Of a stretch of 64,000 nucleotides of DNA, positions 10,351 through 62,785 are shown piece by piece (position 1 is the stretch's first letter; each line of letters opens with the position of its first letter). A model generated the notes under the pieces. It saw only the letters and a list, made by a program, of their open reading frames with translations. It was not told the origin of the DNA and did not search any database. The position numbers and the translations under genes were made by a program. Source of the DNA: a virus; IMG/VR virus record IMGVR_UViG_3300020419_000859; one strand, 5' to 3'.

Positions 10351-11820
10351 ATGCCAGCGATAATAACAACAAAATTCAGAATAAACAACAGTGAGCAATT
10401 TCACGAGTCTTTTAGTGAATCTGCTCCAAACGTTTACTATCTTGGTCTAGCAAGACCACAGGCTTTCGGTACTATCACAAGAGCAGATGGCCGAACAGAT
10501 TACGAAGGAACAGACTCAAATCCAATAACTCCAGGTGATACAGTTGTTGCAGAGTTTAATACTTTTGATGATCTTTTAGCAGCTAAAAAAATAACAAGTT
10601 CAGATGTTTCTTTTGCAATACCAAGAAGAAATTGGGCAACAGGAACAACATACGATATTTACAGACACGACTATGGCGAATATGTGACTGGTAGTACATC
10701 TACTAGAAATACAGCTAATGGTGGTGCAACTACTTTACATGACGCTAATTTTTATGTTTTAACTACAGACAGAAATGTATACAAATGTATTGACAATGAT
10801 GGTAATACTACTTCAACAACAGAGCCATCTGGTACAGGTACAAGTGTAATTACAACTGCTGATGGTTACAAATGGAAATATATGTACACTTTATCGGCGT
10901 CTCAACAATCTAATTTCTTATCAACAGATTTCATGGCAGTATCAACTAACTCAACAGTTAGTTCAGCCGCTGTAGACGGATCAATTGATTGTATTAAAAT
11001 TAAATCAGCAGGTTCGGGTGGTTCTAACGGTACTCACTCTGTCACTATTAAAGGTGACGGTTCAAGTGCAACTGCTAACGTAGTAGTTTCAGGTGGAACA
11101 ATTACATCGGTAACTATGACTAACGTTGGAGCAGGTTATACTTTTGGTACAGTTTCAAATGCAGAAATAGTATCTGCTGGTGCAACAGGTTTAACTGGTG
11201 CAGAATTAGATGTGATTATATCTCCAAAAGGTGGTCACGGTAAAAATGCAGTAGAAGAATTAGGTGGTTTCTTTGTAATGTTAAATGTAAATTTAGAAGG
11301 AACAGAATCAGCAAACTCTGGAGATTTTCATGCTGGTAACGACTTTAGAAAAATTTGTTTAATAAGAGATCCTGCTTCAGGTGGTTCAGCTGCTTCAGCA
11401 AACACTTTAAGAGGAACAAAAGCAATCAGAATTAACTCAACTCCAACACCAGGTACTTTTACAGTTGATGAAGAAATAAATCAAGCAACTACAGGTGCAG
11501 TAGGTAAAGTTGTAGAATGGGACGCAACAAACAGAATTTTATATTATATTCAAACAAGACACAATGACGCCGGCGTTGACGCTAATGGTAACTTGACAGC
11601 ATTTTCTAGTACACATGTAATTACTGGTCAATCATCTTCAGCAACAGGTACACCGGAGACTAGTGTATCATCAACAATTAACAATGTTGTATTTTCAGGT
11701 GGTTATTCTACTCCGGAAATAGATCATGACTCTGGCGATGTATTGTACATAGAGAACAGAGCACCTATTCAAAGAGCAACAGATCAAACGGAAAATATTA
11801 AACTAGTCATTGAGTTTTAA
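10351..11820 (+). CDS. g8: Baseplate wedge subunit gp8
   Basis: IPRRNW, FYVL...VYKCIDN, DGYKWKYMY, NDFRKI and C-terminal ENRAPIQRATDQTENIKLVIEF. Confidence 0.9.
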   Translation: MPAIITTKFRINNSEQFHESFSESAPNVYYLGLARPQAFGTITRADGRTDYEGTDSNPITPGDTVVAEFNTFDDLLAAKKITSSDVSFAIPRRNWATGTTYDIYRHDYGEYVTGSTSTRNTANGGATTLHDANFYVLTTDRNVYKCIDNDGNTTSTTEPSGTGTSVITTADGYKWKYMYTLSASQQSNFLSTDFMAVSTNSTVSSAAVDGSIDCIKIKSAGSGGSNGTHSVTIKGDGSSATANVVVSGGTITSVTMTNVGAGYTFGTVSNAEIVSAGATGLTGAELDVIISPKGGHGKNAVEELGGFFVMLNVNLEGTESANSGDFHAGNDFRKICLIRDPASGGSAASANTLRGTKAIRINSTPTPGTFTVDEEINQATTGAVGKVVEWDATNRILYYIQTRHNDAGVDANGNLTAFSSTHVITGQSSSATGTPETSVSSTINNVVFSGGYSTPEIDHDSGDVLYIENRAPIQRATDQTENIKLVIEF

Positions 11821-21267: not shown

Positions 21268-22554
21268 TTAATAGTTTGTTTCTCTCTTAGCTTTTAAATA
21301 ATATTCTTCTAACTCCGGATGTGTTGAAAACAAGTCGTGGCCTTCTTTTTTACTAAAACCATTTTGATCTAAATCTTGACAATACTCAATAGTCTTAACA
21401 AATTCTTCCAGGTCTTGCTCTTTGTCTAATGCCTTTAGAATATTAGGATAACCTTTATATAATGGTTTTAGTTTTTCCTTAATTTCTTTAGGCAAATTCT
21501 TTACTTGTAATATTCTTGGGTGTTCAATAATATAAAACGTATGCTGTATACCCATATCTTTTAACATAGCAATTAGTTTATGATTTTCTAATACAGATAG
21601 AAAAGATATTACAGAGTGAACATTAACTCTGGCATTTCTTCTAGCTCTCATAGTTTTCATATTGTCTACAAGAGAAGTCCAATCTGATTTCTTTCTTAAA
21701 TAATCATTGTATTTACCATAACTGTCTATAGATATTTTCATAACAAATTCTTTAAAATGATCAAAGTAATCTCTAAAGTTATATCCGTCCATATCAAATA
21801 CAGATAAGTTTGTTTTGTATATTAAATCTATACCTTTTGAATAACCTGTTGCTACTAATTTATCTAATAGTTTATAATGATTTACCATAACTAAAGGTTC
21901 GCCACCAATTAGTTTGATTGATCTAGTAAACTTTGCTACAGAGGCAACATCGTCTAAATATCTTTCATCATCATGTTTCATTGTATTCATTCTTTCGCCA
22001 TCTTTAGGGTCTAAATCTGGATCATATACTTTTTTTAATTTTTTTAGTGAGAGAGTTCTAGTGTTAGCACTTCTTGGTGTACACATATAACAATCTAAAT
22101 TACAAGCATTACCAAACATTTTCATTTTAATATCTAGTATTCTTTCGTCAAAATCTTTTATATCTCCTTCGTCCATGAATTTTTGAACAGCTCTTAATAA
22201 CTCTGGTACTTTACTATCAAATGTACCTGCTAGTATTTGTTCGGTATATTTTTGTCTGTCTGAACGACCATATTTTTGTTCTTGTTTCCAACAACCTGTA
22301 CAGTGATGTCTAAAGTATTTGGGATCCCAATCTTCTTTCAACATTTCTGCTCTTAATTTGTTTTGATAATCGGAAGTATACCATTCTTTAATAGTTGTAT
22401 CTTCCATATTGTGGCCAGTTCTTGCTAGTGCGTCATAACAAGGTGCATATCTACCACTTAAACTAGAGAATACGTGTGTGAAAGGTAAAGGACAGAACCA
22501 TAGTTTTTTATCCTTTAATTTTTGTTCAAATTCTTTTTTCTGTTTCTCATTCAT
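21268..22554 (-). CDS. Radical SAM protein with N-terminal twitch/SPASM-like domain
   Basis: CPLPFTH...PC...CxxC at the N-terminus; CNLDCYMC and GGEPL. Confidence 0.88.
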   Translation of the reverse strand: MNEKQKKEFEQKLKDKKLWFCPLPFTHVFSSLSGRYAPCYDALARTGHNMEDTTIKEWYTSDYQNKLRAEMLKEDWDPKYFRHHCTGCWKQEQKYGRSDRQKYTEQILAGTFDSKVPELLRAVQKFMDEGDIKDFDERILDIKMKMFGNACNLDCYMCTPRSANTRTLSLKKLKKVYDPDLDPKDGERMNTMKHDDERYLDDVASVAKFTRSIKLIGGEPLVMVNHYKLLDKLVATGYSKGIDLIYKTNLSVFDMDGYNFRDYFDHFKEFVMKISIDSYGKYNDYLRKKSDWTSLVDNMKTMRARRNARVNVHSVISFLSVLENHKLIAMLKDMGIQHTFYIIEHPRILQVKNLPKEIKEKLKPLYKGYPNILKALDKEQDLEEFVKTIEYCQDLDQNGFSKKEGHDLFSTHPELEEYYLKAKRETNY

Positions 22555-26419: not shown

Positions 26420-26761
26420 TTATAATCCTAACAACCCTCTAATCTCTGGATCAATCATGTCTCTTGTCCATTGAGGCGTCATTGTGACTCTTACATTGCA
26501 TTTTAGTCCTGGAATACTTTCAACATTCATCTTAACATTATTTACTATTTGATCTGCCGCCGGACAAAAGGCAGACGTTAAACTCATTAACACGTGTACA
26601 TATCTTGACTCTGTGACTTTAACATCATATATTAAACCAAGTGTGTATATATCTGTAGAGATTTCAGGATCGTATACTTCTTTTAGCGCCTCTGTAATCT
26701 TATTAATATATATTAACCTAGTTTCTTGATGATCGTTTATATCGCTCAAATCTGTTTTCAT
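26420..26761 (-). CDS. SufT/PaaD-like (DUF59) Fe-S cluster maturation protein
   Basis: VYDPEI..DIY.LGLIY, LTSAFCP and PQWT motifs. Confidence 0.9.
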   Translation of the reverse strand: MKTDLSDINDHQETRLIYINKITEALKEVYDPEISTDIYTLGLIYDVKVTESRYVHVLMSLTSAFCPAADQIVNNVKMNVESIPGLKCNVRVTMTPQWTRDMIDPEIRGLLGL

Positions 26762-27600
26762 TATACATTCAATATGTTAGCATATTTCTCAATAGGAAAA
26801 TGTCCTTTCGGTTGTACATATTCTTTACAAGTCACACAATATTTTTCATATTTAAATAACTGAAAGTTCATCATCTTATCAATATTTTCTTTAGTCATAG
26901 GAAAAGACCTAGACAATTCGGTGTTGTTAGCAAATTTTTTACTACAGTGTACTATGTGTCTTTTTTCAAAGTCAATAACAGGTACCATAGGAAAAGCAGC
27001 ACACATCTTACGATCTATTTCAGCTGCCTGTTGATGTACTTCTTCTACATCTCCTTTAGATGGTGTTCTACCATTAAACGCTTTGAACATAGTATTTTTG
27101 TGTTCTAATTGCTTTTTAAATTCTGGATAGTTAGCTATGTACTTAAAGTAGTTAGGTGTTTTAAGTACTACATTGTAATTATTCATATCATTTGGTGCTA
27201 GATAGTCATAATTACCTAATTTTTTAATTTTGTCTGGATAAAAATCTAATGTTAAGTGTTCTACATATAATATTTCAGGATCTTCTAATATTTCTGGATA
27301 TCTTTTTCTTATAAAAGAGTTAGATAAAACTTGACAAATAAAATTAGGATATTCTTTTATCATAGATATAACTTCACGTAAGTTTTTAATAAGACCTGGC
27401 TCTCCACCAAGTAAACATATTCTAACTTTATATTTCTTTAAAGCCTCTAATGTTTCTCTTAAAAAATCTAAATCTACTGTTAAGTTTCTCATTTCTAGAG
27501 TATAACTTGTACAATAGTGACAGTCTTTATTACAAGACATTGATAAAAAGAAATCTATTGCCAAATAGTTCTTTTGTGCATATGTTAAATCAAATTTCAT
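26761..27600 (-). CDS. Radical SAM protein with Cys-containing C-terminus
   Basis: CNKDCHYC, LGGEPGL and C-terminal C...C...CxxC. Confidence 0.85.
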   Translation of the reverse strand: MKFDLTYAQKNYLAIDFFLSMSCNKDCHYCTSYTLEMRNLTVDLDFLRETLEALKKYKVRICLLGGEPGLIKNLREVISMIKEYPNFICQVLSNSFIRKRYPEILEDPEILYVEHLTLDFYPDKIKKLGNYDYLAPNDMNNYNVVLKTPNYFKYIANYPEFKKQLEHKNTMFKAFNGRTPSKGDVEEVHQQAAEIDRKMCAAFPMVPVIDFEKRHIVHCSKKFANNTELSRSFPMTKENIDKMMNFQLFKYEKYCVTCKEYVQPKGHFPIEKYANILNV

Positions 27601-31326: not shown

Positions 31327-31706
31327 TATTTTATATCCTTTGCTACTTTTTTACCTTTTTCAAAATACGTTTCAACTTTTACTGCGTCATCTTCTTGTCT
31401 TGCTTTACAATGATGAAGACACGTTTTCAATATACTATTTATGTTGTCTCCTATATCTCTAGCCTGGATCAAGTCATTTTCAAACTTCTTCCATTCTTTC
31501 TGATCTAGTATGTCATCTATACTATTATGATCTTCTAACTTACTAACTTTATAAAGAGGTTGATACTTTTCATCTTTTGTTGTTTTAGGGTGATCACACC
31601 AACAACAAGGTAATAGATGACCTCTGTTATCTATCGCCAAAGGCATAGGCACAAAGCTTTTATCGTCTGGATCAGGCAGACATTTAGGTTTAATTTTTAT
31701 ATACAT
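31326..31706 (-). CDS. Stand-alone SPASM/twitch-like Fe-S domain protein
   Basis: KC...IDNRGHLLPCCWC...CxxxC; lies directly downstream of a short radical SAM gene. Confidence 0.6.
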   Translation of the reverse strand: MYIKIKPKCLPDPDDKSFVPMPLAIDNRGHLLPCCWCDHPKTTKDEKYQPLYKVSKLEDHNSIDDILDQKEWKKFENDLIQARDIGDNINSILKTCLHHCKARQEDDAVKVETYFEKGKKVAKDIK

Positions 31707-32316
31707 CGTTTTTAGATTTTAAAGCTTTTGTTGGCATAAAAGGATCGTCATCACTCAACCACCTTGAAGACTCTACAGATATAAAACTTAATCCTTCGTC
31801 TTCAGCCATTTTTTTACAAGTATCAATATCATTTTCATTATAGTTAAATCTTATACATTGCCATACAGGTGTACTTAATAAATGTTTCTTAGCCTCTTTC
31901 ATTATTTCAAACATTTTCTCCCCATCTTGGTTTTTCCTATACTTGTGGCTGTCTTTTGGTAAACCGTCACAAGCAAAAATCCAAACTGCTTTAGGGTTTG
32001 CTTTCCAAGATTTAATATACCAAGATATTGGTTTAGCTGTAGCTGCATTATGAACAAATACCTCTGGCACATCTTTTAATTCTTTCATTATCTCATTAAA
32101 TTTAGGGTGATGTACAGGATCAGATAACTGACCACAAAAAGCAACATCTTTAAAAAACTTTGCAATCATTTTAATTTCTTTTATAGTTAAGTCACGACCA
32201 TGTGGTACTAGGCCGTTATTAGTAAAAGATGTTTGCCTTTGACAATTAGGACATTCAAGAGGACACCTATGTGTCACATCTAAATTTAATCTACGTCTTT
32301 GTTTAAAGTATGTCAT
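31690..32316 (-). CDS. Radical SAM protein (core domain only)
   Basis: CPLECPNC, CGQLSDP, DGL..SH..YR and FNYNE. Confidence 0.85.
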   Translation of the reverse strand: MTYFKQRRRLNLDVTHRCPLECPNCQRQTSFTNNGLVPHGRDLTIKEIKMIAKFFKDVAFCGQLSDPVHHPKFNEIMKELKDVPEVFVHNAATAKPISWYIKSWKANPKAVWIFACDGLPKDSHKYRKNQDGEKMFEIMKEAKKHLLSTPVWQCIRFNYNENDIDTCKKMAEDEGLSFISVESSRWLSDDDPFMPTKALKSKNDVYKN

Positions 32317-34037: not shown

Positions 34038-34495
34038 AAACATATCAATACGATCTAGAAAAAATCAAACAAGAGTTATCTACTCTGCCAAATTATAACA
34101 AACAGTTATACTTACAAGGGTATTCAAAAGACATGAATCCTGAAGAAGGAGCTGGCGATGGCTATGCCATAGATAGCGTAGAACACACTTATAATATACC
34201 TCTTTTTGATATACCTTACATTAATAGTATAATGCAAGAACATAAACTTACTAGAACGAGATTGATGAGAATGAAACCAAAATCATGCTATCTATGGCAC
34301 AACGACTTAACAAAGAGATTACATATACCAATTGAAACACATGAACATTGTTTTTTGATATTAGATAATGACAGATTTCATATATCAGCCACAGGTGAAG
34401 CGTATGTGATAGATACTACAAAAAAACATACGGCGTTAAATTGTTCAACAATAAATCGTGTTCATATTGTTGGAGGTTTGCCAAATGACCAATAG
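34034..34495 (+). CDS. 2OG-Fe(II) oxygenase, aspartyl/asparaginyl beta-hydroxylase-like
   Basis: HxD (WHND), RLHIPIET, distal H (HTALN) and R.H.V. Confidence 0.8.
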   Translation: MKTYQYDLEKIKQELSTLPNYNKQLYLQGYSKDMNPEEGAGDGYAIDSVEHTYNIPLFDIPYINSIMQEHKLTRTRLMRMKPKSCYLWHNDLTKRLHIPIETHEHCFLILDNDRFHISATGEAYVIDTTKKHTALNCSTINRVHIVGGLPNDQ

Positions 34496-35837
34496 ATTTC
34501 CTACGGCCGATGAAAGATGGCCTAGAGCAGGAGAAGTTATAAAAGAAGATATACTTTATGACGCCGTTATTACATCACTGCCAGGCATGGACAAAAGTAA
34601 ACCGGCACCTGGTCCTTCTTTTCTAAAAGGTTACCTAGAACCATTAGGTTTTAAAATTAAAGTTATTGACGGCCATATGTATGACACGTTAGATAATATA
34701 GAAAAAGAAATATCAAAATACAATTTTAAATGGCTAGGTATATCAGTATTTTCTTTTATGCAAAAAGAAGATGGTTTACAATTAGGTAGAAGATTTGAAA
34801 ATGTATTTTATGGTGGTTCAGGTGTTGATATTAAATGGCCAACTCCTTATTACATAGTAGGAGAAGGAGAATATGCTTTACGTGAGTTCTTAAACGGCAA
34901 CTTTGATTATCCAGGTATTAACGGAAAACTACCAGTACAGATAGAAAACATAGAAGACTTACCACCACCAGATTATTCAGACGTAATACAACATCAAAAA
35001 TATAGAAAGTTTATAATATCAGGATCAAGAGGTTGTGTTAGAAACTGTACCTTTTGTGATGTTGCAAGTATATGGCCTAAATTTAGATGGAAGACAGGTA
35101 AAAAAATTGCCGATGAAATGCATACGATATCTGAACAAACAGATATAAACAGAGTACACTTTTCAGACTCATTAATCAATGGTTCTATGAAACATTTTAG
35201 AGATTTGTGTAGAGAGTTATCTAGCAGACCTAAAAAGATTAAATGGGAGGCACAGTTTATTGTGAGAGATAAAAAAACTTTCTCACAAGAAGACTTTGAC
35301 AATCTAGCAAATTCTGGTTGCAATGCTTTAGAAATGGGTATAGAAGCTGGTAATGAAGAAGTTAGAGATCACATGAGAAAAAAGTTTAGCAATGAAGATA
35401 TAAAATACTTTGTAGAAAACCTAGGAAAACGGAATATTAATATGAAGTTCTTACTGATTGTCGGATATCCTACGGAAACGGAAAAAATGTTTGAAGATAC
35501 TCTACAACTATTAAGAGACTATGCAAAGTATTCACATTTAATTGCCGTATCTCACCACGTAATGATGACTTTTAAAAATACTCCATTAGATTTTGATCAT
35601 AGAGAGTTATTTGATAATGAGTTCGGATTTAAATGGAAAAATGAAAACTCTGATTTTGATATAAGATTTGAAAGATTTATAAAAGTATATGAATTAGGAA
35701 AAGAGTTAGGTTACCATTTTCAAGCACACTGTTTAGAGAAAATAGAAAGATACAAATCCGATAAACTTAATGAAGATAGAAAGTCTATAGGATTTGCTCA
35801 CCCTAAAAAGAAAAATCAATTACACGTACAATCTTAA
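34485..35837 (+). CDS. Cobalamin-binding radical SAM enzyme (class B methyltransferase-like)
   Basis: N-terminal B12-binding-type segment (P..GP..L...L, GISV, GG, GEGE), then SRGCVRNCTFC, GIEAG and IVGYPTET. Confidence 0.85.
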   Translation: MTNRFPTADERWPRAGEVIKEDILYDAVITSLPGMDKSKPAPGPSFLKGYLEPLGFKIKVIDGHMYDTLDNIEKEISKYNFKWLGISVFSFMQKEDGLQLGRRFENVFYGGSGVDIKWPTPYYIVGEGEYALREFLNGNFDYPGINGKLPVQIENIEDLPPPDYSDVIQHQKYRKFIISGSRGCVRNCTFCDVASIWPKFRWKTGKKIADEMHTISEQTDINRVHFSDSLINGSMKHFRDLCRELSSRPKKIKWEAQFIVRDKKTFSQEDFDNLANSGCNALEMGIEAGNEEVRDHMRKKFSNEDIKYFVENLGKRNINMKFLLIVGYPTETEKMFEDTLQLLRDYAKYSHLIAVSHHVMMTFKNTPLDFDHRELFDNEFGFKWKNENSDFDIRFERFIKVYELGKELGYHFQAHCLEKIERYKSDKLNEDRKSIGFAHPKKKNQLHVQS

Positions 35838-37441
35838 AAAGATTTATTAAATCCTAAAGTAAACTTTCTTCCTTCTTGACTAAATCCATGAGGTGATTCA
35901 TAATTTTCATCAAGCAGATTTAACAAACTAACACCAAAGTCTATACCATAATAATTATATCCAAGATTTAAATCTAACAAATGTGTTTCAGGCATTGTTA
36001 TAGTTGACCAATTAGAATTATGTACATCTAAATGTCTGCCTTTATATTTGTAATTAGTAGTTATAGAAAAGTTATTTTCTAATTCTTTTGTATGCATAAA
36101 ACCAAGAGACCAGTTAGGTCTTCTTAATTGTACTACATCAATTTTTTTACTATTTAAATGACTAATAAAAAATTTAGAATTTTCTTGATTATAACTAAAC
36201 TCTATACCGTCAGTATTTAAATCGCCAATATCATTTTTAAATATAGTTGTTGCAAAATTATTTTTAGTTAATGTTAACTCTTGTGATTCTCCGTATTCAA
36301 TAGCAGTCCATGTTGTTTTATCTTTATAACTTGTTGATGTACTACCACTTATACTCAAACCATCTTCTATCTCTTTAAAGAAACCTAATTTATATGTTTC
36401 GTGTTCTTCATCAAACCTATGATGATATGAAAATATATTATGTGAAAAATTAAAGAAGTATCCTAAATTATGATGTTGACCTGTTAATGATTCATTATGT
36501 TTGTAATCAAAACCAAATCCATATTTTTGTTTTTGATGTGTGCCTCTTATAGTATAGTTTTCACTTTCATAATGAGCATTATCATAATCTCTATCATATT
36601 CGTGTGTATGAAAAGTTAAACTGTTATTTAAATAATCAACACCTGTTTGTAAGGCAAAGAAAGTATTATCTGCCCATTTGCCGTCTTGTATAGAAACATT
36701 ATGACCATCTATGTCAGTGAAAGTGTTTCTTGCAAACCAAGATGTTCGCCAATGTACAAGATCGTACCATTTACTTACATTAACACCTATTGTTTTATTA
36801 TTTGTTCCATCTTTTTCGTCAGCACCTGATAAAGCAGAAACGTTTTGTGATTTATGCTCACCTGCTGAAACAGATATATCAAAGTCATTTAATCTAGTAT
36901 AATAATTACCACTAATAGTTTTATCATTACCATTACCACCAACACTTAATCTTTTATCATAATCTACTGTTGTTCTAAAATTAATTGCACCACCAACAGC
37001 GTCTGCTCCCCAATGAGCACCTTGTGACCCTTTGTATACATCTATTTGTACAACATTGAACATAAAGTCTTGACCAACATCATGGGCACCTGTAGGTGTA
37101 GAGTAATCATTGATTGGTATTCCATTTAATAATACTAATGTGTGATTAGAGTTTGTGCCTCTTAAAAACACCGATGATTGTTGACCTGTAGGACCCGATT
37201 GAGTTATGTCTAAACCTTGAACATAGTTTAATACTTTAGGTAAATCAATTAGATTATACTTTTCAATTTCAGATTTTTTAATTGTATGAGTAGGTGTTAT
37301 CTTATCGCCTAATGCGTTTGAATTGTTTATGTTTGGATAAATTGTAAGACAAGGAATATCATCATCCCATTTACAATCATTTTCTTTGGAATAGGCAACA
37401 TTAGCCCATACCAAGATTAATATAAGAATTAATCTTATCAT
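35834..37441 (-). CDS. btuB: TonB-dependent outer-membrane receptor, BtuB-like (cobalamin)
   Basis: Signal peptide; plug motifs SSVFLRGTNSNHTLVLLNGIPIND and IDVYKG...WGADAVGGAINF; NLLDENYE and terminal Phe. Cobalamin riboswitch directly upstream. Confidence 0.88.
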   Translation of the reverse strand: MIRLILILILVWANVAYSKENDCKWDDDIPCLTIYPNINNSNALGDKITPTHTIKKSEIEKYNLIDLPKVLNYVQGLDITQSGPTGQQSSVFLRGTNSNHTLVLLNGIPINDYSTPTGAHDVGQDFMFNVVQIDVYKGSQGAHWGADAVGGAINFRTTVDYDKRLSVGGNGNDKTISGNYYTRLNDFDISVSAGEHKSQNVSALSGADEKDGTNNKTIGVNVSKWYDLVHWRTSWFARNTFTDIDGHNVSIQDGKWADNTFFALQTGVDYLNNSLTFHTHEYDRDYDNAHYESENYTIRGTHQKQKYGFGFDYKHNESLTGQHHNLGYFFNFSHNIFSYHHRFDEEHETYKLGFFKEIEDGLSISGSTSTSYKDKTTWTAIEYGESQELTLTKNNFATTIFKNDIGDLNTDGIEFSYNQENSKFFISHLNSKKIDVVQLRRPNWSLGFMHTKELENNFSITTNYKYKGRHLDVHNSNWSTITMPETHLLDLNLGYNYYGIDFGVSLLNLLDENYESPHGFSQEGRKFTLGFNKSF

Positions 37442-37444
37442 GTT

Positions 37445-37546
37445 GAGTCTCCTTGCTCGTTGTATGGCCTAGGTGGCATTCGGAGTATAACCGTATCAAG
37501 TAATCTGAACGAATTTCACGTCACTTTCCCACTACGCTTTTAGGCC
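37445..37546 (-). ncRNA. Class-II cobalamin riboswitch (AdoCbl-variant type), translational
   Basis: Minus strand reads GGCCTAAAAGCGTAGTGGGAAAGTGACGTGAAATTCGTTCAGATTACTTGATACGGTTATACTCCGAATGCCACCTAGGCCATACAACGAGCAAGGAGACTC. It has a closing GGCCTA/TAGGCC stem, GTGG/CCAC, a GGGAA core and a terminal GAG/CTC hairpin whose loop holds the AAGGAG RBS. The hairpin ends 3 nt before the btuB ATG. Confidence 0.93.
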
Positions 37547-37562
37547 ATTATTATATAACTAT

Positions 37563-37591
37563 ATAGTATCACATTTAATCCAAAATGGCAA
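37563..37591 (-). promoter_or_regulatory. Sigma70-type promoter for riboswitch-btuB
   Basis: TTGCCA-N17-TACTAT with an extended TG. Confidence 0.75.
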
Positions 37592-37600
37592 CTTTCCGAA

Positions 37601-37608
37601 TATAAATA
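37601..37608 (+). promoter_or_regulatory. T4-type late promoter
   Basis: TATAAATA, 5 nt before ATG 37614. Confidence 0.75.
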
Positions 37609-37613
37609 ACTGT

Positions 37614-37964
37614 ATGGCTGGCATAGCAAACTTAACAATAGATCAAGGATCAAATTTTACTTACGACCTAGAAGTCACTAACTCTGACGGATCGGCGTTT
37701 GATCTTACTGGATTTACAATGGTTGCTAAAACGGCTCAAGGATATGCAACTACTTACCCTAGAGTATTGTTTACTTGTACTTGTACAAGTGATATGGCAA
37801 AACTAGGTGTTGTGACTATTAGTTTAACTGCTGATCAAACAAAAGCTATGAAAGCTGGTCGTTGGGTTTTTGATGTTGTTGCAACTCACACTGATAGTAC
37901 GGTTACTCGTTTATTAGAGGGTATCGCAATTGTCACACCGTCTGTAGTAAAAGCCTTTACTTAA
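37614..37964 (+). CDS. Small beta-sandwich virion/fibre-associated protein
   Basis: ANLTIDQGSNF...DLTG...ISLTADQT..MKAGR.VFDV...TRLLEG...TP pattern recognised from marine T4-like phages. Confidence 0.65.
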   Translation: MAGIANLTIDQGSNFTYDLEVTNSDGSAFDLTGFTMVAKTAQGYATTYPRVLFTCTCTSDMAKLGVVTISLTADQTKAMKAGRWVFDVVATHTDSTVTRLLEGIAIVTPSVVKAFT

Positions 37965-39357
37965 TATATTCAAATACTGCTTTGTTCATACCTTTGTGAA
38001 TAAGTTTAAACTCTGCTTTGTTCATAAAATTTTCTAAACTAGCCCATTTCAAGCCAGAAATATCGTCAAATACCCATACAGTTTGATCTGCTTTTCTTTG
38101 ATTAAAGAAAACGGCCTCTTTCAAAACAGATAATGTATCATGTGGACCATCAAAGTGTATCATTTCGTATTTGTCTACCATTCTTTTATATTCATCATAG
38201 ACAGGATAACCATCAGGAAATCTATTCATAAATTCAGTGTCTTCAAAATTAACTAAATGAAACTCTGGATAATCTTCAGCAAAGTTTATTATTGTAGTTT
38301 TTCTCATTAAATTATCATAGTTAAACTTTCTTGCTAATACACTATCAGAAGCTGCATAGTCAATATTACCATAAGGGTCAACACCTAAATGAACAAGAGA
38401 AGTTTTAGGGTGATGATGTCTATATGCGTCTATAATAGTTTTACTTCCTAGACCTAATCTAACACCAATCTCCATACTTGCACCTATAGGATTTTTTAAT
38501 CTTTTTACTGCGTCTGCTAATGAATTATATTCAACACTGTCGCCTGTAAATTTTTCTCCTTCGTTTACTTCTAATGCATATTTTCCTGTTTCAGGATCAA
38601 TACCTGGATATACTCTTTTAACTGCTTTTGCAGTCTTATCAATAAATCTAGTATCTTTGGCACCTTTGCCTTCAACTTCCGTTTTATATGTTGTTGTATC
38701 GTGACCTAAATCATTTACTGTTGGTACTTTAGTTTCAGCAAACATATCACGATTATTCATAATTTGACCAACTTGAAACGTACTATTACCTGTGTGTCTA
38801 CAACGTATTGTAGTATCAGCAAATATTTTAAATCCTTTTGATCTTGCTTTTCTACAGAAATCAACATCTTCAGAAACAGTATTGTTATGATCTAGTGCTG
38901 AGTGATAAGTGAAGTAAGGATAACCAACTTTTCTAAAAACTTCACCTTTAATCAAAGCACAACCCATACCACACGCAACTATTTCAAAGAAAGGATTGTC
39001 TTTACAGTTTTCAAATGGTATACGTCTAGAGCCGCCGTTAGGACCTGCTTCGTAAATTTCTAATGAGTGTGTACCTGGTATTCTTTGTATATAAAGACCT
39101 GACACTATATCTACATCATGTTTTACCATTTTGACTAGTGTATCTTTATCAAAAGCGATATCACTATCTACTGAAAACAGATAGTCATAATGTTCAGCCC
39201 ATGAGGCTATTAAATTTCTTATTTGATCTATTTGATATCCATAAAAGAATTGAAACTCTACTTTAAATCCTTCTGGTGCTGTTAAATCGTATATTGCTTT
39301 GTATGTATCCGGCTCAATATACTTGTTTGTTGGAATTGCTATTAATATTTTTTTCAT
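37957..39357 (-). CDS. GT2-like glycosyltransferase fused to a class I methyltransferase
   Basis: N-terminal RN...YLFSVDSD, GMGCALI and SEDVDFC; C-terminal EIGVRLG, GVDPY, IHFDGPH and VFDD. Confidence 0.85.
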   Translation of the reverse strand: MKKILIAIPTNKYIEPDTYKAIYDLTAPEGFKVEFQFFYGYQIDQIRNLIASWAEHYDYLFSVDSDIAFDKDTLVKMVKHDVDIVSGLYIQRIPGTHSLEIYEAGPNGGSRRIPFENCKDNPFFEIVACGMGCALIKGEVFRKVGYPYFTYHSALDHNNTVSEDVDFCRKARSKGFKIFADTTIRCRHTGNSTFQVGQIMNNRDMFAETKVPTVNDLGHDTTTYKTEVEGKGAKDTRFIDKTAKAVKRVYPGIDPETGKYALEVNEGEKFTGDSVEYNSLADAVKRLKNPIGASMEIGVRLGLGSKTIIDAYRHHHPKTSLVHLGVDPYGNIDYAASDSVLARKFNYDNLMRKTTIINFAEDYPEFHLVNFEDTEFMNRFPDGYPVYDEYKRMVDKYEMIHFDGPHDTLSVLKEAVFFNQRKADQTVWVFDDISGLKWASLENFMNKAEFKLIHKGMNKAVFEYIK

Positions 39358-53956: not shown

Positions 53957-55588
53957 ATGAGTGAAGCATATTTAGGGAATCCTAACCTTAAAAAGGTTAA
54001 TACTCCTGTTGAATACACACAAGAACAAATAGTAGAATATCAAAAGTGTGCTGGCGATCCAATATACTTTATGGAAAAATATATTCGTATTGTATCTCTT
54101 GATGAGGGTTTAGTGCCTTTTAATATGTACGATTTTCAAAAGAGAATTGTTGAGACTATTCACGATAACAGATTTACAATCTGTAAACTACCAAGACAAT
54201 CAGGTAAATCAACAACAACAATTTCATATCTGTTGCATTTTGCATTATTTAATCCTAATAGTAATATTGCTATTCTAGCAAACAAATCCTCAACAGCAAG
54301 AGATATATTAGGTAGATTACAACTTGCATATGAAAACTTACCAAAATGGTTACAACAAGGTGTAATAAATTGGAACAAAGGTAATATAGAATTAGAAAAT
54401 AAGTCAACTATTGTGGCGGCTGCTACATCATCAAGTGCTATCCGAGGTGGTTCTTTTAATATTATATTTCTTGATGAGTTTGCTTTCGTACCTACTAACA
54501 TTGCCGAAATGTTTTTTAGTTCAGTTTATCCTACAATATCTGCTGGTACAAAAACTAAAATGATTATTGTATCTACACCTTATGGTATGAATATGTACTA
54601 TAAGATTTGGATGGATGCTATCAATAAAAAAAATGATTACAATCCAATTGAAGTACATTGGAGTGAGGTACCAGGCCGTGATGAAAAATGGAAAGAACAA
54701 ACAATACGTAATACAAGTGAGGAACAATTTCAACAAGAGTTTGAGTGTGAATTTTTAGGTTCTGTAAATACTTTAATATCAGCTGCTAAAATAAAATCAA
54801 CACCTTACATGACGCCAATTAAATCGGCACAAGGAGTTGACATATATGAAGACGCAATCAAAGGCAATACTTACGTTTGTTCAGTTGATGTATCACGTGG
54901 TGTAGATAAAGATTATTCTGCTTTTATAATATTTGATGTCACTAAAATGCCTTATAAAGTTGTAGCCAAATATAGAAGTAATGAAATTAAACCTTTTGTA
55001 TTTCCTAATATAATATCTAAAGTTTGTAAGAATTATAATGAGGCACATATATTAACAGAGGTAAACGATATAGGTCAACAAGTTGCAGAAGCTTTACAGT
55101 TTGAGATTGAATATCCTAATATACTAATGACTACTCAAAAAGGCCGTGCTGGTCAAATATTAGGCGCTATGTATAGTGGTCGTGGTTCATCTATAGGTGT
55201 TCGTATGACAAAGGCAATTAAGAAAGTTGGTTGTTCTAATCTAAAGACTTTGGTAGAAGGAGATAAGATAGTTGTTAATGATTTTAACATTATTCAGGAG
55301 ATGTCAACGTTTACTAAAAGAGGCCAAAGCTGGCAGGCTGAAGACGGATCAAATGATGACTTAATGATGTGTTTAGTTATATTTGGTTGGTTGTCTAATC
55401 AACCTTATTTTAAAGAGTTGACTAATACAAATGCACGTCAAAAAATGTATGAGGAACAACGAAATTTAATAGAGCAGGATATGGCACCGTTCGGATTTGT
55501 AGACGATGGTGTGACCGATCCTGAAGACGAGGAAACAGTAGATGAATATGGTACAAGATGGTTTCCTGTCTCTAGAAAAGGGCAATAG
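53957..55588 (+). CDS. g17: Terminase large subunit gp17
   Basis: YLGNPNLK, PRQSGKST, FLDEFAF, STPYG, QEFECEF and DDLMM. Confidence 0.97.
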   Translation: MSEAYLGNPNLKKVNTPVEYTQEQIVEYQKCAGDPIYFMEKYIRIVSLDEGLVPFNMYDFQKRIVETIHDNRFTICKLPRQSGKSTTTISYLLHFALFNPNSNIAILANKSSTARDILGRLQLAYENLPKWLQQGVINWNKGNIELENKSTIVAAATSSSAIRGGSFNIIFLDEFAFVPTNIAEMFFSSVYPTISAGTKTKMIIVSTPYGMNMYYKIWMDAINKKNDYNPIEVHWSEVPGRDEKWKEQTIRNTSEEQFQQEFECEFLGSVNTLISAAKIKSTPYMTPIKSAQGVDIYEDAIKGNTYVCSVDVSRGVDKDYSAFIIFDVTKMPYKVVAKYRSNEIKPFVFPNIISKVCKNYNEAHILTEVNDIGQQVAEALQFEIEYPNILMTTQKGRAGQILGAMYSGRGSSIGVRMTKAIKKVGCSNLKTLVEGDKIVVNDFNIIQEMSTFTKRGQSWQAEDGSNDDLMMCLVIFGWLSNQPYFKELTNTNARQKMYEEQRNLIEQDMAPFGFVDDGVTDPEDEETVDEYGTRWFPVSRKGQ

Positions 55589-55705: not shown

Positions 55706-57628
55706 ATGGCATTTCAAGTATCACCAGGTGTTCTTGTACAGGAAAGAGACTTAACTAGAATCATTCCTGCTGTATCAACTTCAATAGGCGCTTTTGCTGG
55801 AGAATTCCGTAAAGGTCCTTTAGATGAGATTACATCAATCTCTAGTGAACAAGAGTTAGTAAGTGTTTTTGGAAAACCCGATTCAAGTAATTTTGAAGCG
55901 TTTTTTTCAGCTGCAAACTTCTTACAATATTCTAACGCATTAAGAGTAGTACGAGTACAAAATACTGGTTTAGCAAACGCAGCCGTTTCAGGTTCAGCAA
56001 TTGCTATCAAAAATACACAAGACTACCAGGATAATTACAATACTGGTCAAGGTTCTGTCGGAGAATGGGCAGCTAGAACAGCAGGAGTTTGGGGCAACAG
56101 CCTTAAAGTTTCTGCTTGTCACAGCGCAACAGGTTTCCAAGAGGACGCAAAAACAACAGTAAACGATTCTTCTATGGCCGTTGGTCATACGACAGTGACG
56201 TTAACATCAGGAACTGGTTTTGCAGTCGGCGATATCGTTGAGTTTTCAACGAGTTCAGGCGGAACAGATTATGATGGTAGAAAATATAAAATAACAGCTA
56301 TCAACACTAACGACATAAGTTTTGTTAGAGCGGATACACTACAAGGTGGTTTACATCAAGTACCTGCTAACGGTGCAAACGTAAGAAGATTTTGGGAGTT
56401 CCATGAATTTGTTTCAGGAGCACCAGGAACATCTCCTTACGCTGCTACTAAATCAGGTGTAAATGATGAAATGCACGTTGTCGTGATAGACGAAGATGGT
56501 AGTATCACAGGTAAAACAGGAGAAGTAATTGAAGTTTACGATAGAGTATCAAAAGCTTCAGACGCAAAAACACCACAAGGTGATTCAAACTATGTAAGAG
56601 ACGTAATTTACAACAAGTCAAATTACATCTATTGGATGGATCATCATGCTTCAGGATCAAACCATGGTTCAGCAGCTGCAGGAATAACTTTCACAGCAGT
56701 TGATACACCAAAAACTGATTCATTAATAAACGGAGCTAATGGTTCAACAGCAACAGTTGGCGAAATAAAAACTGCTTACGAAAAATTTGCAGACGCAGAA
56801 ACAGTTGATGTTGGTCTAATCATTGGTGGAGCTTGCAACGCTACTCACATTGACGACCTAATAACATTAGCAGAGAACAGAAAAGACGCTATCGCATTCG
56901 TATCTCCAGAGAGAGCAGATGTAGTTAATATAGCTTCTTCAATCACACAAACACAAAACGTTAAAGCATTTATGAGCGGTATTCGTTCTTCATCTTACGT
57001 AGTGTTAGATAGTGGTTACAAATATCAATACGACAGATACAATGACGTATACAGATTTGTACCATTAAATGGTGATATGGCTGGTCTTTCTGCTAGAACA
57101 GATTTAATCGCAGACAGCTGGTTTTCTCCAGCAGGATTAAACAGAGGTGTTATCAGAGGCGCTGTTAAGTTAGCATACAATCCAAGTAAATCACAAAGAG
57201 ACGAATTGTACAAAGCGAGAGTTAACCCAGTGGTTACATTCCCAGGTCAAGGTACAGTATTGTTTGGTGACAAAACTGGATTATCTGCTCCTTCAGCATT
57301 TGATAGAATCAATGTAAGAAGACTGTTTATAGTTTTAGAGAAGGCAATCTCAACTGCTTCTAAATTTCAATTGTTTGAGTTTAACGATGAGTTTACAAGA
57401 GCAAACTTTAGAAACATTGTAGAGCCTTTTTTAAGAGAAGTACAAGGTAGACGAGGGATCACAGACTTTTTAGTAGTTTGTGATGAAACTAACAACACAG
57501 GTGAAGTAATTGATAGAAACGAGTTTATAGCGGAGATTTTCATTAAACCTGCTAGAAGCATTAACTTTATCACTTTACAATTCATCGCAACACGAACAGG
57601 CGTCTCTTTTGAAGAGGTTGCAGGTTAA
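55706..57628 (+). CDS. g18: Tail sheath protein gp18
   Basis: SPGV...E.DLT, WFSPAG.NRG, FDRINVRRLF and KPARSINFI. Confidence 0.97.
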   Translation: MAFQVSPGVLVQERDLTRIIPAVSTSIGAFAGEFRKGPLDEITSISSEQELVSVFGKPDSSNFEAFFSAANFLQYSNALRVVRVQNTGLANAAVSGSAIAIKNTQDYQDNYNTGQGSVGEWAARTAGVWGNSLKVSACHSATGFQEDAKTTVNDSSMAVGHTTVTLTSGTGFAVGDIVEFSTSSGGTDYDGRKYKITAINTNDISFVRADTLQGGLHQVPANGANVRRFWEFHEFVSGAPGTSPYAATKSGVNDEMHVVVIDEDGSITGKTGEVIEVYDRVSKASDAKTPQGDSNYVRDVIYNKSNYIYWMDHHASGSNHGSAAAGITFTAVDTPKTDSLINGANGSTATVGEIKTAYEKFADAETVDVGLIIGGACNATHIDDLITLAENRKDAIAFVSPERADVVNIASSITQTQNVKAFMSGIRSSSYVVLDSGYKYQYDRYNDVYRFVPLNGDMAGLSARTDLIADSWFSPAGLNRGVIRGAVKLAYNPSKSQRDELYKARVNPVVTFPGQGTVLFGDKTGLSAPSAFDRINVRRLFIVLEKAISTASKFQLFEFNDEFTRANFRNIVEPFLREVQGRRGITDFLVVCDETNNTGEVIDRNEFIAEIFIKPARSINFITLQFIATRTGVSFEEVAG

Positions 57629-58254: not shown

Positions 58255-59769
58255 ATGGCAGAGTTTTTTGGATTTAAGATTACAAGAGAAAAACCTAAAT
58301 CCGATCCGAAACAAAGTTTTAGTACACCTCAAGCTGAAGACGGCACACAAGTTGTAGCCGCTGGAGGGTATTTTGCGTCTCATCTTGACATGGAAGGGAA
58401 CGCTAAGACTGAAGCGGACTTAATAAGAAGATATAGAGAAATTTCAATACATCCTGAATGTGATATGGCCATTGAAGATATAATCAATGAGGCTATCGTT
58501 GCCAATGAAAATAGACAGGCTGTAAATTTAAATACAAATAATGTTCCTTACGGTAGGGATATTAAGAGAAGAATAGAAGAAGAATTTTCTGAAGTATTAA
58601 GACTATTACAATTTAATACTAGAGGACATGACATCTTTAGAAGATGGTATGTAGATGGTAGAATATACTATCAAAAAATAATTGATACAGAAACAGGAAA
58701 AAAAGGTATTACAGAATTAAAATATCTTGATCCTCGGAAAATCAAAAAAATCAGAGAAGTAAGAAAGAGAAGACCTGACGGTGTGGCTCCATCGGCTACG
58801 AATTTAGTAGACGAAACTATGGAGTATTTTTTGTATAATGAAAGAGGTGTAGGTGGCGCTAGTTTACAAGGTATTAAAATTGCTGTAGATACTATCGCAT
58901 TTTGTCCATCAGGTTTAATAGATCAGAATAAAAATATAATTTTATCATACTTACATAAAGCAATTAAACCAGTTAATCAATTAAGAATGATTGAAGACGC
59001 TGCTGTTATTTACAGAATAGCAAGAGCACCTGAAAGACGTATATTCAAAATTGATGTTGGTAATTTGCCTAAAATGAAAGCTGAACAATATTTAAGAGAC
59101 GTTATGGCAAGATACAGAAACAAACTTGTATATGACGCAGCTACTGGTGAAATCAGAGACGATAGAAATTATATGTCAATGTTAGAAGACTTTTGGTTAC
59201 CAAGTAGAGAGGGTGGTAGAGGTACAGATATTTCTACTTTACCAGGTGGTCAGAATTTAGGTGAGATTACTGATATAGAATACTTTAGAAGTAAACTATA
59301 CAGATCACTAAACGTACCATCAAGTAGACTTGAAGCTTCTAGTGGATTTAATTTAGGAAGATCAACAGAAATAACTAGAGACGAATTAAAATTTACTAAA
59401 TTTGTTCAAAGATTAAGAAAGAAATTTATTGAATTATTTAATGATATTTTAAGAACTCAACTAGTTTTAAAACAGATTATAGCCGAAGAAGAATGGCCAA
59501 TGATCAGAGATAATATATTCTATGACTTTTTACAAGACGGTCACTTTGCAGAATTAAAGCAAGCTGAAATGTTAAAAGATAGAATACAATTAGCAAATGA
59601 CGTTAGAGACTATGTTGGTAAATATTTCTCTGTTGAATATGTTAGAAAAAATATATTGAAACAGAGCGACGCTGATATAGAGAAAATAGACAAACAAATC
59701 AAAACAGAAATAGATAACGGAATCATATCAAGTCCTGGTAATCAGGTTGTTGATAGTGAGGAGTTATAA
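58255..59769 (+). CDS. g20: Portal protein gp20
   Basis: FRRWYVDGR, YRIARAPERRIF.IDVGN, EDFWLP and ITRDELKF. Confidence 0.97.
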   Translation: MAEFFGFKITREKPKSDPKQSFSTPQAEDGTQVVAAGGYFASHLDMEGNAKTEADLIRRYREISIHPECDMAIEDIINEAIVANENRQAVNLNTNNVPYGRDIKRRIEEEFSEVLRLLQFNTRGHDIFRRWYVDGRIYYQKIIDTETGKKGITELKYLDPRKIKKIREVRKRRPDGVAPSATNLVDETMEYFLYNERGVGGASLQGIKIAVDTIAFCPSGLIDQNKNIILSYLHKAIKPVNQLRMIEDAAVIYRIARAPERRIFKIDVGNLPKMKAEQYLRDVMARYRNKLVYDAATGEIRDDRNYMSMLEDFWLPSREGGRGTDISTLPGGQNLGEITDIEYFRSKLYRSLNVPSSRLEASSGFNLGRSTEITRDELKFTKFVQRLRKKFIELFNDILRTQLVLKQIIAEEEWPMIRDNIFYDFLQDGHFAELKQAEMLKDRIQLANDVRDYVGKYFSVEYVRKNILKQSDADIEKIDKQIKTEIDNGIISSPGNQVVDSEEL

Positions 59770-61597: not shown

Positions 61598-62785
61598 ATG
61601 GCCGAAATAGAAAAAAAGATTGAGGCAGTAAAAGATCAAAAAGAGGTAGCGGAAAACACTGCTAGTCCTAATGCTGATCTTCCGAAGAAAAATGCTGTTG
61701 CAGCTGAACCTACACATCTGAAAAACGATGCTGAGGATTTAGGTGCGGCTGTAGTTAAACCTACAGACAGTAATCCGGACGCTGCTAAATCTACAAAAGA
61801 AGTTTCTGGTCAGGCACCTCAAAAATCAGAAGGTGCTCCTGATCCAATGCCTACTTTGAAAAAAGAAGGTGCAAAAGAAACTGAATCGGAAGATAAAGAA
61901 ACTGTAAAAGAAGGCGAAATGCCGAAAGCTGCTCTTGACGCTTTGAAAAAACATCAAGACAAAAAAGAAGGCTACGGTAAAAAAATGGAAGATTCTAAAG
62001 CAGACGACAAAGAAGTTAAAGCTGAAGAAAAATCTGAAAAAGAGATTGACGTTAAAGAACACGTTGACGCTCTTATCGCTGGACAAACAGACTTATCTGA
62101 AGAATTTAAAAACAAAGCTGCTACTATCTTTGAAACAGCAATCAAATCTAAAGTAAAAGAAATTGCTGAAGACATGGAAGCAGATTACAATAAAAGATTC
62201 GAGGAAGAGACCTCTACAGCAAAAGCTGAGTTAGTTGAAAAAGTTGATTCTTACCTATCATACGTGGTAGAAGAATGGATGAAAGAAAACGAACTTGCTC
62301 TTGAAAGAGGAATCAAAGGCGAAATCGCTGAGGACTTTATCAGTGGTCTTAAAAAATTATTTGAAGATCATTACATAAATGTTCCAGACGAAAAATATAA
62401 TGTACTTGAAGATCAAGCTTCTAAAATAGACGAACTACAGAAAAAGTTAGACGAGTCTATTGAGAAGAATGTTGAACTATCTAAGCAATCAAATAAGTAC
62501 AAAGCTGAAGAAATTAAAATGGAAGCGGCTAAAGACTTAACTGAAACTGCAAAAGAAAAATTTAACAAACTTGCTGAAGAAGTAGATTATTCAACAGAAG
62601 CAGATTACAGACAAAAAATAACTACTATTAAAGAGAGTTATTTCAAATCTAAAGACGTTTCTGGTGACGGTATAGACGAAGTAGCGACTGGCGAAGGAAC
62701 TCAACCTGAGGACCTAAGCAATGCAATGGCTGCTTATAGTGCCGCTATAAGTCAAACTAAAAACATAAAGTTGTCTAACAAATAA
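61598..62785 (+). CDS. g22: Prohead core scaffold gp22
   Basis: LSEEFK.KAATIFE.A, KVDSYL.YVVEEW and LK.LFEDHYI.VP. Confidence 0.93.
   Translation: MAEIEKKIEAVKDQKEVAENTASPNADLPKKNAVAAEPTHLKNDAEDLGAAVVKPTDSNPDAAKSTKEVSGQAPQKSEGAPDPMPTLKKEGAKETESEDKETVKEGEMPKAALDALKKHQDKKEGYGKKMEDSKADDKEVKAEEKSEKEIDVKEHVDALIAGQTDLSEEFKNKAATIFETAIKSKVKEIAEDMEADYNKRFEEETSTAKAELVEKVDSYLSYVVEEWMKENELALERGIKGEIAEDFISGLKKLFEDHYINVPDEKYNVLEDQASKIDELQKKLDESIEKNVELSKQSNKYKAEEIKMEAAKDLTETAKEKFNKLAEEVDYSTEADYRQKITTIKESYFKSKDVSGDGIDEVATGEGTQPEDLSNAMAAYSAAISQTKNIKLSNK

Follow-up and report, generated by a model that had tools for sequence, protein, structure and literature searches.

The env8HyCbl riboswitch has become a standard model of a ligand-stabilised RNA switch. 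Crystallography, single-molecule FRET and ligand design have all been applied to it, its status so far being that of an anonymous environmental sequence. Its crystal structures (4FRN and 4FRG) are said to have been reported by Johnson et al. in 2012. In the literature consulted, env8 is described only by a GenBank accession given as its source (AACY021350931.1) and by its membership in the 144-sequence AdoCbl-variant family (Polaski 2016, PMC5028336), the taxa of which were listed only as 'Marine' (Weinberg 2010, PMC2864571). According to the published work on env8, including the results attributed to Johnson 2012 and those of Polaski 2016 (PMC5028336), cobalamin with a small upper ligand (HyCbl or MeCbl) is preferred over AdoCbl and is bound at the junction of env8, the corrin touches the kissing loop formed by L5 and L13, and the docked loop occludes the ribosome-binding site (RBS) and represses a reporter approximately 8.5-fold. 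The env8 literature places A20 in the binding pocket.

Riboswitches have also been sought in marine phages. A survey with Riboswitch Scanner identified none in pelagimyophages (PMC7029224), and Melnitz-like phages were found to possess only glutamine riboswitches, a cobalamin riboswitch with btuB being present in the OM43 host and not in the phage (Buchholz 2022, PMC9004378). The literature searched, which left out most subscription journals, yielded no relevant account of cobalamin riboswitches in phages or of btuB as a viral auxiliary gene.

The stretch of DNA analysed here, referred to as the window, consists of 64,000 nucleotides of the IMG/VR virus record IMGVR_UViG_3300020419_000859. The sole RNA family that the Rfam covariance models identified in it was RF01689 (AdoCbl-II, formerly AdoCbl-variant), the aptamer of which was located by cmscan at 37546..37466(-) with a score of 73.5 bits (E 2.1e-16; the gathering score is 36.5 bits) in a match that spans model positions 1-81 of 81. 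The original prediction of a riboswitch in the window was right about the existence of the element and about its coordinates (37445-37546), and had to be corrected as to strand, which is the minus strand. On that strand a linker of 7 nt separates the aptamer from a small hairpin at element nucleotides 89-102, downstream of which is the start codon of the regulated gene (ATG, 37441..37439(-)). The features of the element and its surroundings are listed in Table 1.

Table 1. Positions of the RNA element, the regulated gene, neighbouring genes and phage structural genes in the window.
Feature	Position	Strand	Basis or remark
Class-II cobalamin aptamer, element nt 1-81	37466..37546	-	cmscan, covariation, GOS seed row match
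L5, element nt 45-50	37502..37497	-	UACUUG
U39, only difference from the env8-type sequence	37508	-	
Expression platform: J1/13 linker (nt 82-88) and P13/L13 hairpin (nt 89-102)	37445..37465	-	Read from sequence
L13, eight-base loop CAAGGAGA, nt 92-99, pairs with L5	37455..37448	-	
GGAG ribosome-binding site inside L13	37452..37449	-	7 nt before ATG
Candidate sigma-70-type promoter: TTGCCA, 17-nt spacer, TG-extended TACTAT	37563..37591	-	Consensus scan only
Regulated gene: compact 535-aa BtuB-like TonB-dependent outer-membrane receptor (predicted)	35834..37441	-	Opens at ATG 37441
Class-B-like radical SAM, 459 aa, convergent to receptor gene	34458..35837	+	Radical_SAM E 7.8e-21
Divergent upstream ORF, 116 aa, tail-fibre-assembly-like	37614..37964	+	phrog_1084 E 5e-20
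Methyltransf_24 ORF	37957..39357	-	Upstream of promoter region, separate unit
Baseplate wedge subunits	4937-6778, 10351-11820		PHROGs
Large terminase	53957-55588		PHROGs
Tail sheath	55706-57628		PHROGs
Portal	58255-59769		PHROGs
Scaffold	61598-62785		PHROGs

Between L5 and L13, four Watson-Crick pairs (C47-G95, U48-A94, U49-A93 and G50-C92) and the pair U45-A99 can be drawn, with A46 facing G96 and with A97 and G98 left unpaired. The kissing-loop switch that had been proposed from the complementarity of L5 to the RBS loop is therefore present as a pairing, in the geometry described for env8 (Polaski 2016). The minimum free energy fold of the single sequence was uninformative (z -0.48, the junction not being reproduced), and the structural assignment was based on the covariance model and on covariation.

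The candidate promoter would place the transcript start a few bases 5′ of P1, and other members of the subfamily or clade have a near-consensus TTGACA-N17-TATAAT just upstream of P1. These motifs suggest that the leader may be transcribed by the unmodified polymerase of the host, a suggestion that rests on consensus matches only and is not evidence of function. A perfect TATAAT (37555..37550(-)) was set aside as the -10 element, because the transcript start would then fall inside P1. This TATAAT ends 4 nt before P1; as a -10 element it would produce a leader in which the aptamer cannot form, and it could be an alternative, unregulated start.

For comparison with env8, an env8-type sequence was taken from the AdoCbl-variant Stockholm alignment (Weinberg 2010, PMC2864571, supplementary files 78 and 200). 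With its gaps removed, the GOS (Global Ocean Sampling) row JCVI_SCAF_1096627830159/1185-1300 agrees with the window element in 101 of 102 bases; the exception is position 39, which is C in the GOS row and U in the window, turning a G-C pair into a G25-U39 wobble. The original prediction had held that the element resembles env8 almost base for base and had given CGUCCAG for env8 at the place where the window has CGUUCAG. The row JCVI_SCAF_1096627830159 has exactly that reading, and the low identity to env8 that would have refuted the prediction was not encountered, with the reservation that the comparison was made with an env8-type GOS sequence and not with the PDB or GenBank sequence itself.

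Several lines of evidence connect this GOS row with env8. The env8 residues named in the literature (A20, U45, A46, G96, A97, G98 and A99) fit the numbering of the window element, as does the published position of env8 P13 (89-102), and in the 144-sequence AdoCbl-variant seed only two rows start with 'GGCCUAAAAG', one of which is JCVI_SCAF_1096627830159. Because the residue numbering fits and the row is one of only two such rows, the scaffold may be identified as the source of env8 or its twin, an identification that is very probable and not proven, being indirect in that AACY021350931.1 itself was not compared. A full-text search for the env8 sequence or for AACY021350931 found no paper that prints either, and the supplements of PMC5028336 and PMC10653944 contain no env8 sequence.

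Supplementary file 78 also contains the flanks of the GOS element, 100 nt on the upstream side and 314 nt on the downstream side, which were compared by eye with the window (37646..37131(-)). The upstream flank is identical at all 100 positions and covers the first codons of the divergent phage ORF. The downstream part, comprising the end of the leader and the first approximately 100 codons, is identical at 297 of 314 positions (94.6%), and the GOS/window differences include one two-residue change (TPTYK versus TPTHT). Since the coding part is 94.6% and not 100% identical, the source of the GOS sequence must have been a relative and not the same genome as the window; since no contig among 38 related IMG/VR and JGI contigs exceeds 91% in the upstream flank, the window is the closest known relative of that source at the leader. 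As far as these alignments can tell, the window is thus of a different strain from the GOS source, though its nearest relative in the leader region.

Pattern scans yielded 143 loci with 66 distinct aptamers. For the analysis of covariation, 78 distinct leader sequences were aligned and scored against the Rfam structure and the published kissing loop. Paired cells made up 92.9% of the alignment at paired positions, versus 31-43% when the partners were slid, and the observed covariation score was reached by none of 500 shuffles. In P1, both sides have changed in five of six pairs; in P5, pair 44-51 alternates between U-A and G-C; and the closing pair of P13 (89-102) alternates between G-C and A-U. 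Pair 25-39 is G-C in 62 of the 78 distinct sequences and G-U in the other 16, a recurrence that marks the U39 of the window as a structure-preserving wobble found in nature. The core pairs never vary and hence are uninformative for covariation. L5, L13 and the GGAG motif are invariant in the 78 distinct relatives, so that no covariation of the loops was demonstrated; the invariance of L5 is partly by design because the search pattern fixed it, whereas L13 was unconstrained.

Conservation along the locus is uneven. Across 38 loci of the env8 clade, identity to the window is 98.3% in the element, 80.7% in the upstream 100 nt and 93.8% in the first 600 coding nucleotides. The relatives also keep L13 with its GGAG, at an unchanged distance from the start codon. 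From these comparisons it is inferred that the RNA structure is under selection. In five loci (L006, L014, L017, L075 and L080) the element is identical to that of the window at 102 of 102 positions, the upstream 100 nt are only 64% identical and the receptor gene is 83.5% identical, as might be expected if the RNA is very strongly constrained or if recombination has occurred at the leader.

The protein encoded by the regulated gene begins with a signal-peptide-like N-terminus, followed by a Plug domain (PF07715, residues 50-152, E 1.2e-18). Its best NCBIfam families (TonB-B12) are two BtuB equivalogs, TIGR01779 and NF007926, with scores (97.1 and 91.1 bits) far below the equivalog cut-offs (599.7 and 836). 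When a profile of 35 homologues was searched against the PDB, E. coli BtuB was matched with E 4e-33 and the next protein, Cir, with E 4e-15. The AF2 model of the receptor has a plug inside a barrel of approximately 22 strands (pLDDT 72.8, pTM 0.74), and E. coli BtuB occupies all of Foldseek ranks 1-12 for this model, mostly with TM 0.74-0.79. Homologues carry the source annotation 'outer membrane cobalamin receptor'. A conserved C-x-W...P-C motif is found at the N-terminus, where the confidence of the model is low. On the strength of the profile and structural matches, the protein is predicted to be a compact, BtuB-like receptor and not a BtuB equivalog; its function in the infected cell is unproven, and the host is not established.

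Downstream ORFs are BtuB-like in 117 of the 120 riboswitch loci that could be assessed. In three metagenome contigs (L048:5486-6037, L051 and L060), the riboswitch is followed instead by a 183-aa DUF6580 membrane protein (E 1e-42), possibly another kind of cargo related to cobalamin. In other phage-like contigs, of up to 64 kb, a receptor with 76% identity to that of the window (L021:8828-10447, also in L022-L026) is encoded directly after nrdA/nrdB; its gene overlaps the ORF upstream of it, and RF01689 finds no match there. Accordingly, the receptor exists in phages without the riboswitch too. Searches of GenBank phages found nothing with the leader (blastn) and no marine phage with the receptor (tblastn), close records possibly having been hidden from both searches, and an exact-protein look-up of the receptors of L033 and L035 found none on record.

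The original prediction had supposed that the switch is partnered with a methyltransferase, and this part of it needs correction. The Methyltransf_24 ORF was rejected as the regulated gene by its strand and position; it belongs to another unit, and the gene under control of the switch is that of the BtuB-like receptor. The only possible methyltransferase partner is the convergent radical SAM protein, which is also a possible consumer of the imported cobalamin, and for which B12 dependence has not been demonstrated. Its best NCBIfam matches are B12-binding radical SAM methyltransferases (PhpK-type P-methyltransferases, for example), all of them below cut-off, and its match to the B12-binding domain PF02310 is marginal (E 0.054). 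A homologue in L033 that is 38% identical to it matches PF02310 with E 1.4e-6, which is under the Pfam gathering score. Among its sequence matches in the PDB is AprD4, which is not known to use cobalamin. Elsewhere in the island are three further radical SAM ORFs (21268-22554, 26761-27600 and 31690-32316 (-)) and an Fe-S assembly protein (FeS_assembly_P, 26420-26761(-)); homologues of the genes at 21268, 26420 and 34458 recur beside riboswitch-BtuB cassettes in otherwise unrelated contigs.

The island that contains these genes is flanked by structural and packaging genes (PHROG E 1e-70 to 1e-207). The portal protein is 77% identical to that of Pelagibacter phage Mosig, 62% to that of OM43 phage Melnitz and 59% to that of HTVC008M, and the window is accordingly assigned from its gene content to a T4-like marine myophage of the pelagimyophage type, a SAR11 host not having been demonstrated. 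The block that holds the riboswitch has the baseplate genes on one side and the collagen-like fibre genes on the other. It is rich in glycosyltransferases and also encodes an aminotransferase, a carbamoyltransferase and a number of radical SAM proteins; in position it corresponds to the 'host recognition cluster' of pelagimyophages (PMC7029224). The divergent ORF upstream of the riboswitch also matches phrog_3304 ('L-shaped tail fiber protein assembly') with E 5.7e-16. A PstS-like periplasmic phosphate-binding protein (1669-2610(+), PBP_like_2, E 1.7e-40) is a second uptake-type auxiliary gene of the window.

The distribution of the subfamily was determined with a degenerate 42-mer that has 30 fixed bases and in which L5 is fixed. 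Matches were found in 30 contigs of IMG/VR, the viral label of which is a prediction, in 112 contigs of JGI and other metagenomes, and only once in a collection with one genome per species for 185,579 bacterial and archaeal species. The sole match in the prokaryotic collection is a 2.9-kb phage-like contig binned in a 'Flavobacterium' MAG; its leader and flank are identical to another GOS seed row, and it carries a radical SAM gene of a phage family. In these collections the subfamily is thus not found mainly in bacterial chromosomes; a mainly chromosomal distribution would have pointed to recent capture from a host. No RF01689 match was found in the nearest viral record (G001).

Sixteen loci match the window element at 102 of 102 positions, and four (L005, L013, L086 and L135) have the env8/GOS form with C39. 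If the env8 clade is defined by 0-4 aptamer differences it comprises 46 loci, 43 of which share further island genes of the window (for example the methyltransferase, glycosyltransferase, fibre genes and radical SAM); in the remaining three (L011, L085 and L102), only the receptor gene matches the window. One of these three has an env8-clade cassette (L011:9980-11692) with four aptamer differences and a receptor 90% identical to that of the window. Its backbone differs, with primase and tail assembly chaperone families, and the occurrence of the cassette in a different phage backbone suggests that the cassette moves between phages.

In distant clades (8-15 differences), the riboswitch is followed by BtuB-like proteins of 553-625 aa with 25-60% identity. 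The context of one such locus (L033:1075-10102) includes a radical SAM protein, BtuB, ThyX, a radical SAM protein with a sub-threshold B12-binding match, and PstS, and that of another (L096) includes DNA ligase, a SPASM radical SAM protein, a porin, BtuB, ClpP and an exonuclease. Judged by these genes, both contexts look viral. Their parent records (G002 for L033) are 172 and 115 kb long, with estimated completeness of 47% and 34%, and may represent very large phages of another kind. A T4-type portal was not found in the large riboswitch-bearing viral records G002-G004, so that those carriers have not been shown to be T4-like and their nature is less certain.

That a model riboswitch taken from an anonymous environmental read might come from phages had been raised in the original prediction, and it gains support from the 100/100 flank that extends into the tail-fibre-assembly-like ORF and from the viral and metagenomic distribution of the subfamily. 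As inferred from sequence comparison, the env8HyCbl environmental sequence most likely came from a close relative of the window phage and not from a bacterium. The alternative is that the env8 read derives from a bacterial (host) chromosome and that the phage holds a recently captured riboswitch-btuB cassette. Bacteria commonly have a cobalamin riboswitch ahead of btuB, such an arrangement being present in the OM43 host of Melnitz, a related phage (PMC9004378), and some metagenome contigs have BtuB proteins of 590-625 aa with sigma-70 promoters after riboswitches of the same subfamily; but the upstream flank of the GOS sequence is that of the window and runs into a phage gene, the only match in 185,579 species genomes is 2.9 kb long with a phage-family radical SAM gene, and the divergent-clade contexts sampled hold the phage accessory genes ThyX, PstS, ClpP and DNA ligase. 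Capture from a bacterium is therefore considered very unlikely.

It is harder still to credit that the phage element has lost its activity and survives as a relic, its likeness to env8 having no regulatory meaning. The presence of U39 in place of C39 and the absence of expression data would permit such a view, but the change at position 39 keeps a G-U pair seen in 16 of the 78 distinct sequences, compensatory changes are found in P1, P5 and P13, the element is better conserved than both of its flanks, and L13 is preserved with its GGAG and its distance from the start codon. A question of a different kind is whether the receptor imports a nutrient at all. BtuB is a classical receptor of phages and colicins, and the gene has tail-fibre and glycan genes around it in the host-recognition cluster; moreover, the protein is unusually short and has a Cys pair where a TonB box would be expected, and no partners for transport were noticed. 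The receptor might instead alter the cell surface (by superinfection exclusion or as a decoy for competing phages) or affect the timing of lysis, with B12 merely as a physiological cue. This is judged unlikely, though it deserves to be kept in mind, because the nearest match in both sequence and structure is specifically BtuB, because genes for B12 uptake are normally placed under a cobalamin sensor, and because B12-type radical SAM genes recur beside the cassette in unrelated contexts.

The explanation preferred here, and held with considerable confidence, is that the element, a member of the class-II cobalamin family, acts in a T4-like marine phage to switch translation OFF and that env8 came from a close phage relative. 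This analysis itself established the RNA family, the identity at 101 of 102 positions and in the flank, that the surroundings are those of a phage, that the receptor has a BtuB-like fold and that the subfamily is distributed among viruses; ligand selectivity and control of translation by the kissing loop are borrowed from the env8 literature by analogy and were not demonstrated for the window RNA. Because the window RNA differs from env8 by a single wobble, the env8 mechanism is the default expectation, in the absence of assay data for the U39 variant. By that mechanism, a leader of approximately 110 nt would be transcribed by the host RNA polymerase, and hydroxo- or methyl-cobalamin would bind the four-way-junction aptamer; on binding, L5 would dock on L13, and docking would hold the GGAG in the kissing loop and block translation of the receptor. 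By installing the receptor, the phage would cause the infected cell to import B12 for the phage's B12-type radical SAM enzymes encoded in the same island, and receptor synthesis would stop once B12 is sufficient. That the imported B12 feeds phage enzymes is an inference from the gene neighbourhood.

A broader hypothesis may be offered only tentatively, as one that could well prove wrong: that most marine 'AdoCbl-variant' riboswitches with the L5 sequence UACUUG, including much of the Rfam seed and env8, are viral, and that they belong to a mobile cassette that imports cobalamin for viral enzymes. The hypothesis would further have the cassette carried by diverse marine phages, often beside B12-type radical SAM genes, a conjunction as tentative as the rest, and the hosts would possibly be ones that lack TonB-dependent B12 uptake of their own.

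The RNA itself is already known, or is a one-base variant of a known molecule. What appears to be new is that it comes from a phage and that phages carry cobalamin riboswitches with which a BtuB of their own is gated, prior mention not being excluded. Placement in a phage gives env8 a setting, namely lytic infection, a receptor as cargo and probably early transcription by the host polymerase. In that setting the way the switch is kinetically tuned, and its favouring of hydroxo- and methyl-cobalamin, become open to physiological study. It also points to a class of auxiliary gene that is unreported as far as could be found, a phage-encoded, metabolite-gated vitamin B12 receptor. Considerably more than a hundred contigs, viral and metagenomic, contain the riboswitch-receptor cassette, despite two Riboswitch Scanner surveys in which no cobalamin riboswitch was reported from this phage group. 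The finding also indicates that viral sequences can dominate a riboswitch seed alignment when it is drawn from metagenomes.

Compared with env8HyCbl, the window element has the same length of 102 nt and the same numbering of the residues named in the literature, and it shares the L5-L13 kissing loop, the A46-G96 pair, the bulge of A97 and G98, and the location of the RBS in L13. It differs, as judged from the GOS seed sequence that fits env8, in having U39 for C39. The natural context that it supplies for env8 is the host-recognition cluster of a phage, with a cargo gene that is BtuB-like and with a candidate promoter of the sigma-70 type. The btuB riboswitch of E. coli operates as is proposed here, with an L5-L13 kissing loop that hides the RBS and represses an outer-membrane B12 receptor, but that RNA is a cellular, class-I, AdoCbl-selective riboswitch with peripheral extensions, and the window receptor is approximately 60 residues shorter than E. 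coli BtuB and approximately 19% identical to it in structural alignment. The glutamine riboswitches of Melnitz-like phages, pelagimyophages and cyanophages (PMC9004378) are likewise found in marine T4-like phages of streamlined heterotrophs, but have another class of ligand and another cargo. Finally, the pstS genes of marine myophages resemble the receptor gene of the window in that a host-type uptake component is encoded by a lytic marine phage, whereas the component in the window is an outer-membrane, TonB-dependent vitamin receptor with a metabolite-sensing RNA of its own.
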